From Octopus vulgaris (lineage: Eukaryota): a DNA stretch of 64,000 bases. A program made the position numbers and the translations under genes. Below the pieces are notes generated by a model. It made no database searches. It was given only the letters and a program-made list of their open reading frames with translations, and was not told where the DNA came from. The first letter of the stretch is position 1, and each line of letters begins with the position of its first letter. Location of the stretch: NCBI GenBank assembly GCA_951406725.2, contig OX597833.1, positions 51,832,001 through 51,896,000 on the forward strand, written 5' to 3'. Shown one piece after another: positions 17,220-63,224 of this stretch.

Positions 17220-17953
17220 TGTTTGTGTGTCTGTGTTTGTCCCGCCAACATCGCTTGACAACCGATGCTGGTGTGTTTATGTCCCCCGTAACTTAGCGGT
17301 TCAGCAAAAGAGACCGATAGAATAAGTACTAGGCTTACAAAGAATAAGTCCTGTGGGGGGGGCGATTTGCTCGACTAAAGGCGGTGCTCCAGCATGGCCG
17401 CAGTCAAATGACTGAAACAGGTAAAAGAGTAAACGAGTCATAAACTTATTTATAAGCAGGTTGGGTAACTACATTGAGATTCTTTGGTTGGCATCGAGAA
17501 ACAAACACCAAACCACAACCTTCCCAGAAAACTAAAAAATCTAAAACACAAGCACATTGCAACTATATCGAGATAAAATACGGAAGTGTTGATATTTTAT
17601 AAAACGAACCCAGAACTTCACAATAGATTTAGGATAACCCTGCTGACATGTTAATAGAGTACTAAGACTATATACGGTACAAAAGACCATATAAATGACA
17701 AGAGAGTCTCAGCAATTACCGTATCAATTGATTTATTAATGTCCGAGTAGAGTGGAAGCACACGGCTATAGAATAAGTGTTAGAAATGAGATGTTTCTAT
17801 CGACATAGTCTCTTGGTGGCTGATCACTTAAGCCAGCCGTGACGTTATGCAGATGTGAGATGTGACAGACGACCAATAGAAGAGGAGAGGGGAATGTGAT
17901 CCGCTTGTGCATATTTTATGGCTGCTAAATGATTGTTGATATTGATAAGAATT

Positions 17954-18571
17954 CAAGGCGGCGAGCAGGCAGAAACGTCGAGCTGGCAGAAACGTAGCCG
18001 GCATCTCTGGTCACAATTTACGATCTTTTTTTTTCTTTTCATTTGAAAAGGAAACTGTGACTGGAGAAGAGGTGTCTGTCGGAGTGTATGTTCCAAAAGA
18101 GATGGAAGCATGTTGCACGAGTGTTGTGCATGCAAGGAACCGTGTGAATAGACGGGAAAAAAAGGAAAAATAAAAAGGTATCAGCGGTAGATCGGGGCTT
18201 GTGGGATCGGAGCGTAACTTGATCATCGCTTCATTTGTATTGTTTCTGTACTGTGTATTCCATTCGATTTTTTATGTATTGTATTTTATTTTAAAGTCAC
18301 ATTTATGTAAAATCATATCGATTCACTGATCCCATCAGTTGTACTGTCCATATCTATGTTTGGCCCCTTGTGGGCAATAAAGAAATTCGTATTTCGTCTG
18401 CCGGTACGTTCTGAGTTCAAATTCCGTCGAGGTCGACTTTGCCTTTCATCCATTTGGGGTCGATTAAATAAGTACCAGTTACGCACTGAGGTCGATGTAA
18501 TCGACTTAATCCGTTTGTCTGTCCTTGTTTGTCCCCTCTGTGTTTAGCCCCTTGTGGGTAGTTAAGAAATA
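17954..18571 (+). mobile_element. SINE B (16-bp TSD) interrupted by a probable Tx1/L1-clade LINE 3' end (~18000-18387)
   Basis: TSD GATATTGATAAGAATT at 17938-17953 and 18572-18587. The insert translates (frameshift in a T-run, one stop) as GISGHNLRSFF..FHLKRKL*LEKRCLSECMFQKRWKHVARVLCMQGTV*, resembling Tx1 ORF2 C-termini from recall, followed by a 3'UTR ending like the SINE tail. Confidence 0.6.
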
Positions 18572-18889
18572 GATATTGATAAGAATTGTGTGTATGTTTG
18601 TAGACATGTGTATGTGTGTGAGTGTGTGTGCGTTTGGGTGGGTCTTTGGGAGTATCATCATCAGGGACAAGCTAGCAGAATCGTTATGGCGTGGGAGAAA
18701 ATAAATTGAGGTCCTTGTGGGAGCTTTGAGACTCTGAGTTAAATTCCCGTTGGAATCGATTTATTTTTATTTTAATCCTTCAGTGATAAACAAAATATAG
18801 CAGCAGATCAGGTACTAGGTTCGATGGCATCGACTAATCCCTATCCATTAAAATGGCTGCTCTTCTGCCTTCGTAATCAGACGCGACAT

Positions 18890-19260
18890 TTCCTGCGATA
18901 CCTTAACGGTGAGCAGGTGTGTGGTCGTCGATTGTTGAACTCGCTTTTCTACAGATGGTCTCTTTACTGGAGCTACAGCCCTGGATCTGGCGTAGACCCA
19001 GAGACGGCACTTGGCACATAGAGTGTCTTCAAGCGCTGACAGCCCTCGGCCTGTTGAGCAATGCGATTGGTGGAAGTTGTACCTTGGAGTTCTATAGGGA
19101 ATTAGTGGAGAGCAAGAGCGGTATTCGTCTTGGTCGTGGTCGTGGTGATCAGTCTTGCACTTGTTCTCATCTGACAGAATTGTGGGAAGGTAAATTATTT
19201 AGCGTTCAGACACTCATTGGGTGTCTCCATCCTCTCTCTGCATAGTTAGGTACGCCGTGG
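18890..19260 (-). pseudogene. Highly degraded RTE-like LINE C-terminal fragment
   Basis: Minus-strand remnants resembling the W..PN.EVL..LPS, RIP, EL.G and R.KDTL motif order, with many frameshifts. Confidence 0.3.
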
Positions 19261-43814: not shown

Positions 43815-44047
43815 AAGGCGGCGAGCTGGCAGAAGCGTTAGCACGCCGGGCGAAATGCGCAGCCGTATTTCGTCTGCCGTTACGTTCTGAGTTCAAATTC
43901 CGCCGAGGTCGACTTTACCTTTCATTCTTTCGGGGTCGATTCAATAAGTACCAGTGACGCACTGGGGTCGATATAATCGACTTAATCCGTTTGTCTGTCC
44001 TTGTTTGTCCACTCTGTATTTAGCCCCTTGTGGGTAGTAAAGAAATA
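43815..44047 (+). mobile_element. SINE B inserted in the A-box region of a SINE A (host ~43785-44408)
   Basis: 15-bp TSD GAGGTAAGAACATTA at 43800-43814 and 44048-44062. Confidence 0.9.
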
Positions 44048-44426
44048 GAGGTAAGAACATTACTTCACAACCACATGTCCCGGGTTCAATACCACTGCGT
44101 GGAGCTTTGGGCAAGTTACTTCTACTATAGCGTCGGGCAAACCAAAGCCTTGTAAGTGGATTTGGTTAGACCGAAACTGAAAGAAGCCTTTCGTATATGT
44201 GTTTGTTAGTTCCCTACCACTTCTTGACAACCGGTGTTGGCGTGTTTACATCCCCGTAACTTAGCGGTCCGGCAAAAAGACTCCGATAGAATAAGTACTA
44301 TTCTTTAAAAAAAAAACGTAAAGTCTTGAGGTCGATTTGTTCGACAAAGATCCTTCAAGATGGTGAGATGGTGTCCCAACATGGCGGCAATCGAATGACT
44401 GAAACAAAATAATAATAATAATAATG

Positions 44427-50324: not shown

Positions 50325-51369
50325 GGGACATGATCTAAAACACATATTGCTTCGCGCCTTTCTCCCTTGGGTCCTCAACGTCTAGTGGAATAGTTAGGGT
50401 CACCGATGTTACATACAGCTTGCCTCTCGGGGAATTTTTAACGAACACTGCATGTTTCTTCCAGAGAGAAAAAGATATAGAATAAAAGGGAGAAGCAAGA
50501 AGAACCGATTTCTGTACTTGACTAGTAAGTTCGTTTATCTCCCTCGGAAAATAAGAACGGCAAAGTTCATCACGACTGATTAGAACTCAGAACGGACATA
50601 ACCAGAACATATACAGTAAGCTAATTTATGCGACACTCTTTCGACAACCCATGCAAAACTCTGCCTAAACATATATAAATATAAATATATATAAACATTC
50701 TGAGTTCTGAGTTCAAATTCTGCCGAGGTCGACTTTGCCTATCATCTTTTCGGGGTCGATAAATTAAGCACCAGTTTCTCACTGGGGTCGATGTAATCGA
50801 CTTAATCCCTTTGTCATTCCTTGTTTGTCCCCTCTATGTTTAGCCCCTTGTGGGTAGTAAAGAAATATATATAAATATAAATATATATAAACATTCTGAG
50901 TTCTGAGTTCAAATTCCGCCGAGGTCGACTTTGCCTTTCATCCTTTCGGGGTCGATAAATTAAGCACCAGTTTCTCACTGGGGACGATGTAATCGATTTA
51001 ATCCCTTTGTCTGTCCTTGTTTGTCCCCTCTATGTTTATCCCCTTCTGGGTAATAAAGAATAAAGAAATAAGACTTCTTTTAGCTTAGACAGCGATATAG
51101 GGACAGTTAGTCTCAATCTGGACAACCGGCCCGAATGCTTGCAAAAGAGTGTAGGAATCTGCTAAAAGTACCAGGGCACCTGTTGGTGGTGTTAAAAACC
51201 CGACGACCAATTAAATCTACCACCCAAAGTGGACTGACTGGTGTAACACGAAAAGAAATTTGGTTGCTATTTCTACAGATGGGGAAACCATACTGAAGAT
51301 CCTTTGTTGCTGCCTTTTGGATAGCTACACACGTAGATGATAGTGGTATGTGTGTGTGTGCGTGCGTGC

Positions 51370-53200: not shown

Positions 53201-54286
53201 TGTAATTAGATACACCTGGCATATAAGAACAAATGTTTCTACGCTCATTCTGTAGTCAGGTATCTGTGAACCATATGCTATTTATGCAAATTGGATTTTC
53301 CAGTTTACTGAAATCTTTAATTGCAGAGACTATAAGTATACAGCAAGACAATGGCCAGATAACAGATGGATTCTCGTTTTCTGATGAATGCCTCAAATAA
53401 AACCGACAATCGTTGGACCAAGCTCTTTTTTCTTCCTGGAGAGGAGATTGTGCGGTCTTGTGTTTTCATTTATCTACTGACACATAAGTGAAGGCGCGTA
53501 GCTTAGTGGTTAGGAGTATTCGACTCATGAGCGTAAGGTCGTGAGTTCGATTCCCAGTGTTGCGTTGTATCCTTGAGCAAGAAATTTATTTCACGTTACC
53601 CCAGCAAAACTGAGTAGTAGTATGACACTGGGGTAAAATATACGAAGCCCAATATATCCATTATGACTACCCGTCCGATAACGGTACACTAGGCATCACA
53701 ACTATATGTGCGCGACATAGTGATCTCATACCAAGATAAACAGCACATGACCTTGCAGGTGGGGCCCAGTTAGAATTTTCTTCTGGTCGAGTAGCCCATC
53801 CCGCTCAAAAGGTCCCTGAATAAGGATTGTTTAAGGATCTTCAACGAACCTTGTCACATTGTGTGCCACTCCGAATTTCCCACATGGTTCCTGGTTCAGA
53901 ACTATGTTAAGGGTACGTGTGTCTGTGGAGTGCTCAGCCACTTGCACGTTAACTTCACGAGTAGGCTGTTCCGTGGATCATATGAACTAGAAACCTTGTC
54001 ATCGTAACCGACAGAGTACCAGTTATTACTGACGCCTCTGCAGTGTAGGATAAAATCTATAATATTGTTATTAAGGTGGCGAGCTGGCAGCGTCGTATAG
54101 AACGTCAGACAAAATGCTAAACGGTATTTCGCCCCGTCGCTACGTTCTGAGTTCAAATTCCGCTGGGGGTCGACTTTTCCTTTCATTTTTTTGGGGTCGA
54201 TAAATTAAGTACCTGTAAATCACTGAGGTTCGATGTAATCGACAAGTCGCCTCCTTGCTATAGGACTTGTGTCTGTAGTAGAACAG

Positions 54287-55012
<726 letters not shown>

Positions 55013-62611: not shown

Positions 62612-63224
62612 CATATATATATATCGACGGGCTTTTTTCAGTTTCCGTCTACCATATCCACTCACAAGGCTTTGGTCGGCCCGAGGCTACAGTAGAACAG
62701 TAGAAGACACTTTCCCAAGGTGCCACGCAGTGGGACTGAACCCGGAACTATGTGGTTTGTAAGCAAGCTACTTACCACACAGCCAGGCATTGAATATGCA
62801 AATACATAGACACGCATACACACATAAGCACCCTGAATGCAGTCTATGTACATCTCAGTAACTGCACCTGTCTAAAGATGGATACATTATGATATTTGAA
62901 TAGAAACATATCTGAGTCTATAAAATTTCACAAGGCACAGGAGTGGCTGTGTGGTGAGTAGCTTGCTCACCAGTCACATGGTTCCGGGTTCAGTCCAATT
63001 GCGTGGCACCTTGGGCAAGTGTCTTCTACTATAGCCTCGGGCCGACCAAAACCTTTTGAGTGGATTTGGTAGACGGAAACTGAAAGAAGCCCATCGTATA
63101 TATGTATTACAAAGAATAAGTCTTGGGGTCGATTTGCTCGACTAAAAGCGGTGCTCCAGCATGGCCACAGTCAAATGACTGAAACAAGTTAAAGAGAAAA
63201 AGAGTAAGGAATGAAACTATAAAT

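Follow-up and report, generated by a model that had tools for sequence, protein, structure and literature searches.

A truncated L1/Tx1-type LINE within a SINE of Octopus vulgaris and the insertion site of its family

The interrupted SINE B copy

The 64-kb stretch of Octopus vulgaris DNA analysed here (hereafter the window) contains a copy of a SINE, referred to as SINE B, which spans positions 17955-18571 and is split between head and body by a foreign segment at 18003-18387 (Table 1). The original prediction had described a foreign segment of ~390 bp inside a TSD-bounded SINE B, and indeed the segment measures 385 bp and the TSD 16 bp. Nor is the segment single-copy: a search of the octopus's own genome, in which the best 40 of 685 candidates were scored, yielded 39 other copies with 92-97% identity, all of which start at query position 4, and no second copy was found within the 64-kb window. 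The SINE body downstream of the segment shares 93% identity with an intact SINE B copy at 43815-44048.

The head of the interrupted SINE is rearranged, with approximately SINE positions 24-42 lost and a 17-bp unit tandemly repeated (17962-17995). At the 3' junction of the segment, AAAGAAATT is directly followed by CGTATTTCG; CG is the most that is duplicated around the insert, and a clean internal TSD is absent. The SINE B head yielded no tRNA with ARAGORN and no match in Rfam, and box-like stretches were recognised only by eye, namely what we take to be an A-box-like stretch inside the head and, presumably, a B-box-like stretch at 18413-18422 (both by comparison with the box consensus). tRNA-derived octopus SINEs, OR1 and OR2, were reportedly described by Ohshima and Okada in 1994, and SINE B may be one of them.

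The reading frame of the segment ends in FHLKRKL...FQKRW, which had been called typical of Tx1 ORF2 C-termini. It is the true C-terminus of the 1133-aa ORF2 of a LINE family, here called Fam1a, although in the window a frameshift at a T run near 18026-18035 and a TGA stop at 18058-18060 disrupt it. The segment is a dead, 5'-truncated 3' end of this family, which is presumably of Tx1 type; the feature is real and, taken alone, an ordinary single dead copy. It is very improbable that the locus arose instead by a single template-switching event or through an assembly error, as the rearranged head and the missing internal TSD might suggest: the same 3' junction recurs at 55 other independent loci, and a contig from one public DNA run, which may be the source sample, crosses the head-LINE join. 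Since this contig spans the join with 17 letters fewer, the join appears to be real and the 17-bp repeat possibly later or allelic; in three of four public DNA runs the contig of the locus ends inside the SINE head and leaves the LINE join uncovered.

Table 1. Parts of the interrupted SINE B copy in the window
Feature	Position	Strand	Remarks
SINE B TSD, left copy, 16 bp	17938..17953	+	identical to 18572-18587
SINE B head, about positions 1-50, damaged	17955..18000	+	aligned with other heads; 3' end is target half-site CGTAGCCG
5' junction, 2 letters	18001..18002	+	either untemplated or within a short stretch of microhomology to the LINE; based on alignment
Fam1a ORF2 end, about 48 last codons, broken	18003..18147	+	natural stop 18145-18147
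Fam1a 3' UTR, without poly(A)	18148..18387	+	final ~43 nt (18345-18387) are the tail common to SINE B and sister Tx1 families
Remainder of SINE B, positions 50-233	18388..18571	+	opens with target half-site CGTATTTCG; 3' end is a LINE-like tail
SINE B TSD, right copy, 16 bp	18572..18587	+	identical to 17938-17953

Other repeats lie elsewhere in the window. A degenerate remnant of an L1/Tx1-type ORF2 (40% over 72 aa, E about 1e-7) is located 350 bp downstream of the locus (18919-19134). A tandem duplication of 198 bp at 50667-51060 takes in a SINE B body, 53623-54600 contains a direct repeat of 228 bp (96%), and at 62613-63107 the other abundant SINE forms an inverted pair.

Structure and target site of Fam1a

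The 39 other loci were taken with 8 kb of upstream sequence, and 38 of them were examined, one tandem duplicate being left out. A common 5' end is reached by 33 of the 38 copies, and the element measures ~5.34 kb. Its ORF1 (508 aa) carries a zf-CCHC zinc knuckle (PF00098, above its cut-off), and ORF2 carries the domains Exo_endo_phos, RVT_1 and zf-RVT (Pfam PF03372, PF00078 and PF13966, on L046). Tx1-type elements possess a separate upstream ORF1 with a zinc knuckle. Full-length copies with an endonuclease and reverse transcriptase ORF were thus recovered with the segment as query, as the original prediction had anticipated. The best solved-structure match of ORF2 is human L1 ORF2p (221 bits, E 2e-64), a score of 298 bits is reached by a zebrafish protein to which the name Tx1 was assigned automatically, and the nearest named protein match, at 58%, comes from Argonauta. 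In an ORF2 tree of 34 rows (seven of our own and 27 of the 120 listed matches, with neither L1 nor a curated Tx1 reference among them), Fam1a and the zebrafish "Tx1" protein are joined in a 96/93 group. An L1/Tx1-type non-LTR retrotransposon is supported, and the zinc knuckle of ORF1, the endonuclease, reverse transcriptase and zf domains of ORF2 and the human L1 match all bear out the earlier assignment of the segment to the 3' end of such a LINE.

Fam1a comprises about 60 copies, with at least 51 exact 3' ends (an exact-pattern count and hence a lower bound). Fourteen copies, that of the window included, are 5'-truncated, and the 3' end is fixed. The apparent target duplication at Fam1a copies amounts to 13-16 nt; TSDs of 11-13 bp and 11 bp were read at L061 and L176, and they are short or absent in most truncated on-target copies, again including that of the window.

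The insertion site is narrowly defined. The flank begins at SINE position 50 in 56 of 57 other Fam1a loci (55/56 without one tandem duplicate), a set made up of the 39 similarity matches and 18 further loci obtained with the exact 3'-end pattern, and as the queries contained no SINE body, the SINE flank was not selected. The predicted targeting of the SINE head thus appears in the tabulated 3' flanks of the whole family; for comparison, the available text of a study of Tx1 elements (PMC4494074) takes more than 20% of flanks in one repeat as target preference. The sole off-target copy, L061, has its own TSD starting with CGTA, which fixes the LINE 3' end. Among the truncated copies (L034, which is 5'-deleted, was excluded from the count), 12 of 14, that of the window included, have a SINE head directly 5' of differing LINE breakpoints; the remaining two are an off-target copy and a copy interrupted by a different element.

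The host SINEs are far more diverged than the LINEs which they carry. In 236 young pairs the distance between host SINE bodies is 9.9% vs 1.0% between the LINEs, and in 30 full-length loci (three loci with rearranged bodies were dropped) the median distances are 9.1% and 1.3%, and the two do not correlate significantly (Mantel rho 0.22, p 0.09). Host SINEs that differ by ~10% where LINEs differ by ~1%, together with truncated copies that keep their SINE heads, indicate independent, targeted insertions into pre-existing, diverged SINEs. One might instead regard head, LINE and SINE body as a single composite jumping unit with an inherited constant flank, given that the 5' join is identical in 33/33 full-length copies and that 18/33 of them have T at base 14 of the 5' duplicate vs 5/33 on the 3' side, a difference that partly tracks the LINE tree. 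This reading is largely refuted, however, and we give it hardly any credence, for not only does the divergence of the host bodies exceed that of the LINEs roughly tenfold, but head positions 1-48 also diverge by 4.5-6%, well above the LINEs, the truncated copies show breakpoints at varied LINE positions behind a SINE head, and L176 carries a private transversion in both of its TSD copies. What the base-14 pattern suggests from the sequences is that a small number of bases at the junction are carried along with the LINE RNA. An RNA origin of the entire head upstream of full-length LINEs was rejected, as head positions 31-48 diverge there like those of free heads (4.5% vs 5.1%); positions 1-30 are 6.0% diverged beside LINEs vs 9.8% in free SINE heads, and an RNA origin fits only the last bases of the 5' SINE head. 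That Fam1a targets the SINE B site we regard as practically certain.

SINE B heads occur in two types, GCGTAGCC and GCTTAGCG, and the former is found at 31 of 32 informative full-length Fam1a copies, compared with 13 of the 23 heads read from SINE B copies in unbiased DNA (p 3e-4). Truncated Fam1a copies alone show a weak preference in the same direction, with nine of ten in the GCGTAGCC head (p 0.11 vs SINE B heads).

Two observations concern the head itself. A hairpin with the insertion site at its tip is predicted in the SINE head at 43851-43876 of the window (SINE positions 36-60); a nuclease that requires this hairpin is not favoured, as an older subfamily, Fam1b (see below), also occurs at SINE-SINE junctions lacking the left arm (L272, L279). 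In addition, a second SINE-head site at about position 16 is occupied, just 5' of a Fam1a copy, by an element (L181:3900-5071) with ORF1, only both ends of ORF2 and a Fam3-type tail, and some SINE ends likewise resume at about position 16 of a SINE head.

Shared tails, older copies and the mobilisation of SINE B

The final 34 nt of the window copy agree with the tail of its host SINE at 29 positions and the usual Fam1a tail at 27; a SINE-like TT in the tail occurs in a single one of the 51 exact 3' ends, namely that of the window copy. The tail had originally been called nearly identical to that of SINE B, which overstates the agreement, although the similarity is indeed well above chance (score 26 for the Fam1 tail vs a mean of 6.6 and a maximum of 13 in 2000 shuffles). 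The likeness between LINE and SINE B tails is beyond chance, yet common to several families. Two sister families, Fam2 and Fam3 (30 loci sampled of each), share 70-73% ORF2 identity with Fam1a and form one clade with it (100/100); both include intact copies, and Fam3 is dispersed and possesses intact ORF2s. Against 88 SINE tails, the mean scores of Fam2 (27.4) and Fam3 (27.2) exceed that of Fam1 (24.5), and when the best tail is counted for each SINE copy the modal Fam2 tail alone is best in 76/88 and the Fam1 tail in 4/88, so that the segment's own family, originally proposed as the donor of the tail, is one candidate among several. The modal tail of the SINE, like that of each of the three LINE families, is predicted to form a small CCC/GGG hairpin. 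Because a related SINE has head and body in common with SINE B while its tail is different, the tail most simply passed from a LINE to the SINE, and it presumably entered SINE B from some member of this Tx1 radiation, with several sister families as candidates.

A LINE with a near-identical SINE tail was sought with one pattern across the genome, which gave zero matches, and with a second pattern, which gave one locus (L218). There, on the reverse strand at about 1430-1546, a T/C-rich stretch that is not SINE sequence precedes ~56 nt of SINE B tail in a single-copy piece, which was rejected as the donor LINE, with no ORF2 upstream and no further copies found by pattern searches that may miss copies.

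SINE B is far more abundant than Fam1a. In 464 kb of unbiased DNA we counted 62 SINE B tail units, which corresponds crudely to 10^5-10^6 per genome, and 49 of these (~79%) are not at a SINE-SINE junction. At such junctions a nearly fixed AATAG is followed by GTATTTCG, as after the LINE. The claim that the window segment sits at the same site as the SINE-SINE junctions is accordingly right as to the point of resumption but not as to the preceding letter, which is G at the junctions where Fam1a has C. The reading of these junctions as a hotspot is overstated as well: rare variants are common to adjacent SINE units in 14 of 20 pairs, compared with 260 of 2893 pairs of unrelated units, and TAGGTAT is the last sequence before unique DNA in many single SINEs, which suggests that many junctions were inherited from multimeric sources or arose by local duplication or re-insertion in cis. 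As judged from these variants, SINE-SINE junctions do not appear to be a count of independent hits.

A looser 3'-end pattern (117 matches, 100 of them listed, from which 20 loci were taken and 15 had the diagnostic letters) revealed Fam1b. In 14 of the 15 copies its last letter before (G/A/C)TATT is G, as at SINE-SINE junctions. Nine are placed at the SINE site; of the others, three lie in unique DNA and three on the 5' end of a further Tx1 element, and all six of these flanks begin with RTATT. The three copies on another Tx1-like element (L279, L283, L285) lie directly on its 5' end, and that element starts with the target variant GTATTGCGTC. The 5' sides readable by eye at eight Fam1b-type loci, one of which (L289) lacks the diagnostic letters, comprise five GCTTAGCG heads, two SINE-SINE junctions and one ambiguous case. 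Pair identity of 3' ends is 98.4% in Fam1a and 93.0% in Fam1b, compared with 90.8% among SINE bodies, all in small and similarity-biased samples. Identity between Fam1a and Fam1b (L273, L278, L285 vs L046) is ~90% in ORF2 and the 3' UTR but near 65% in the ORF1 regions, and their 5' UTRs differ, a pattern suggesting a 5' replacement.

The sites at which SINE B itself has landed bear on the question of its driver. In 44 copies with a readable TSD (11-22 nt, mode 16), pooled from all loci and including some LINE hosts, 23 targets have RTA at their start (background 6.9%) and 16 have RTAT (background 3.8%). RTAT is the core of the Fam1 site and thus common to the landing sites of LINE and SINE. 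We consider it quite probable that Fam1a is a Tx1-type LINE which inserts at one base of SINE B, with an endonuclease likely nicking TAGCC^GTATTT, and that the same lineage likely moves SINE B by way of the common 3' tail. The role of autonomous driver, originally ascribed to the segment itself, would thus probably fall to the Fam1 lineage, but the older Fam1b suits it better than the young Fam1a of the window: Fam1b fits because its age is apparently similar to that of the SINE, its junction base is the same and its motif is the RTAT of dispersed SINE sites, and 10^5-10^6 SINE B copies per genome vs ~60 young Fam1a copies mean that Fam1a is not the main source. Most SINE B copies were presumably made by Fam1b or its ancestors.

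It is also conceivable, though rather unlikely, that Fam1 merely uses SINE B as a safe landing pad, while a sister family (Fam2, Fam3 or an unsampled one) moves it and the tail reflects common Tx1 ancestry. The higher tail scores of Fam2 and Fam3, the dispersed Fam3 copies with their intact ORF2s, the AAGAAA found after some GGGCAAT-tailed SINE ends as it often is after Fam3 ends, and the youth and rarity of Fam1a all accord with such a division of roles. RTA occurs in only 1/30 Fam3 flanks, however, and RTAT in 0/30 Fam2 flanks, so the motifs of the SINE sites are missing there, and junction base, motif and apparently age are common to Fam1b and the SINE. RTAT at SINE sites could, under any driver, also arise if read-through RNA of the SINE itself paired with the target. 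A point against Fam1 as the driver is that Fam1a is 98% on target, yet ~79% of SINE B units lie off SINE-SINE junctions; weaker specificity in trans has a precedent in SINEU-1 and SINEU-2, of which 23% and 13% are on target according to the available text of PMC4494074.

Insertion of the LINE would follow the known TPRT pathway, in which the endonuclease would nick the bottom strand at SINE position 49/50 and the reverse transcriptase would prime on the ~40-nt tail, perhaps aided by read-through RNA (...GTATTTCG) pairing with the target. For the window copy, reverse transcription would have ended early, after 385 nt, leaving a messy 5' join with target bases lost. The insert would come to lie between the putative A-like and B-like boxes, and the host SINE would thereby lose its promoter and be silenced. 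A closed, co-evolving loop can be envisaged, although we lean somewhat against it: the Tx1 lineage would make SINE B copies that serve as new landing sites, landing would split their promoters, and LINE subfamilies would switch with head variants, from Fam1b on GCTTAGCG heads and SINE-SINE junctions to the younger Fam1a on GCGTAGCC.

Relation to known target-specific LINEs

A Tx1 element that targets a repeat and has a SINE passenger is already known. The crocodilian Tx1-Mar LINEs and their SINEU passengers have a common target within another repeat, Mariner-N4 (Kojima 2015, PMC4494074). As far as the available text of that study goes, the systems are alike in pairing a LINE of the Tx1 clade, to which that of octopus may belong, with a SINE, the SINEU being less specific (13-90% on target), in the use of 5'-truncated copies as proof of independent insertion, and in tandem stacking. 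They differ in that the target there is a third element, whereas in octopus the SINE with the common tail is itself the target, at one base and in 98% of Fam1a, and in that the octopus subfamilies are tied to SINE head variants. The same text lists Tx1L of Xenopus in Tx1D, Keno in U2 snRNA, and Kibi and Koshi in microsatellites; like Fam1, these are AP-endonuclease LINEs with sequence-specific insertion into a multicopy target, but their targets are a DNA transposon, an RNA gene and microsatellites, while that of Fam1 is a SINE dependent on LINE enzymes.

Stringent LINE/SINE pairs have a common tail, and L1-clade tails are recorded in only three SINEs in the available part of Ohshima (2013, PMC3747384). 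The 3' end of SINE B resembles a LINE 3' UTR in the same manner, but the octopus tail is common to several sister families, so that a one-to-one pair cannot be named. OR1 and OR2 are cited as abundant octopus SINEs with a tRNA-type head (PMC4758252, PMC4824008); SINE B is likewise abundant and its head may be of this type, and the citing passages name neither a partner LINE nor targeting. For O. vulgaris, 13 recently active L1-Tx1 families are reported, in a text whose available part does not discuss targets (PMC13282606). A LINE that targets its own tail-sharing SINE was not found in the open literature; entries for these families may exist in Repbase, in Dfam, in subscription journals or in the Zenodo library of PMC13282606. 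Fam1 and SINE B represent a well-supported variant of Tx1 targeting, one whose target is probably also the passenger.

If the closed loop described above holds, the LINE tracks a target that it manufactures itself. The usual view of SINEs as pure parasites would be reversed, in that the SINE would offer its carrier ever more places to land without harm, while SINE copies that receive insertions would be inactivated by the carrier. The sister families, 20-30% apart in ORF2 and with different targets, moreover constitute a natural series for the study of specificity by AP-type endonucleases or by RNA-DNA pairing, a question that bears on site-specific gene insertion tools. Fam1a and its sister families differ in short endonuclease loops. 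Within Fam2 (L070-L099), sub-lineages of nearly identical ORF2 have different recurring 3' flanks, formed by two repeats, and at L257, L264, L268 and L269 Fam2 copies are stacked head to tail.
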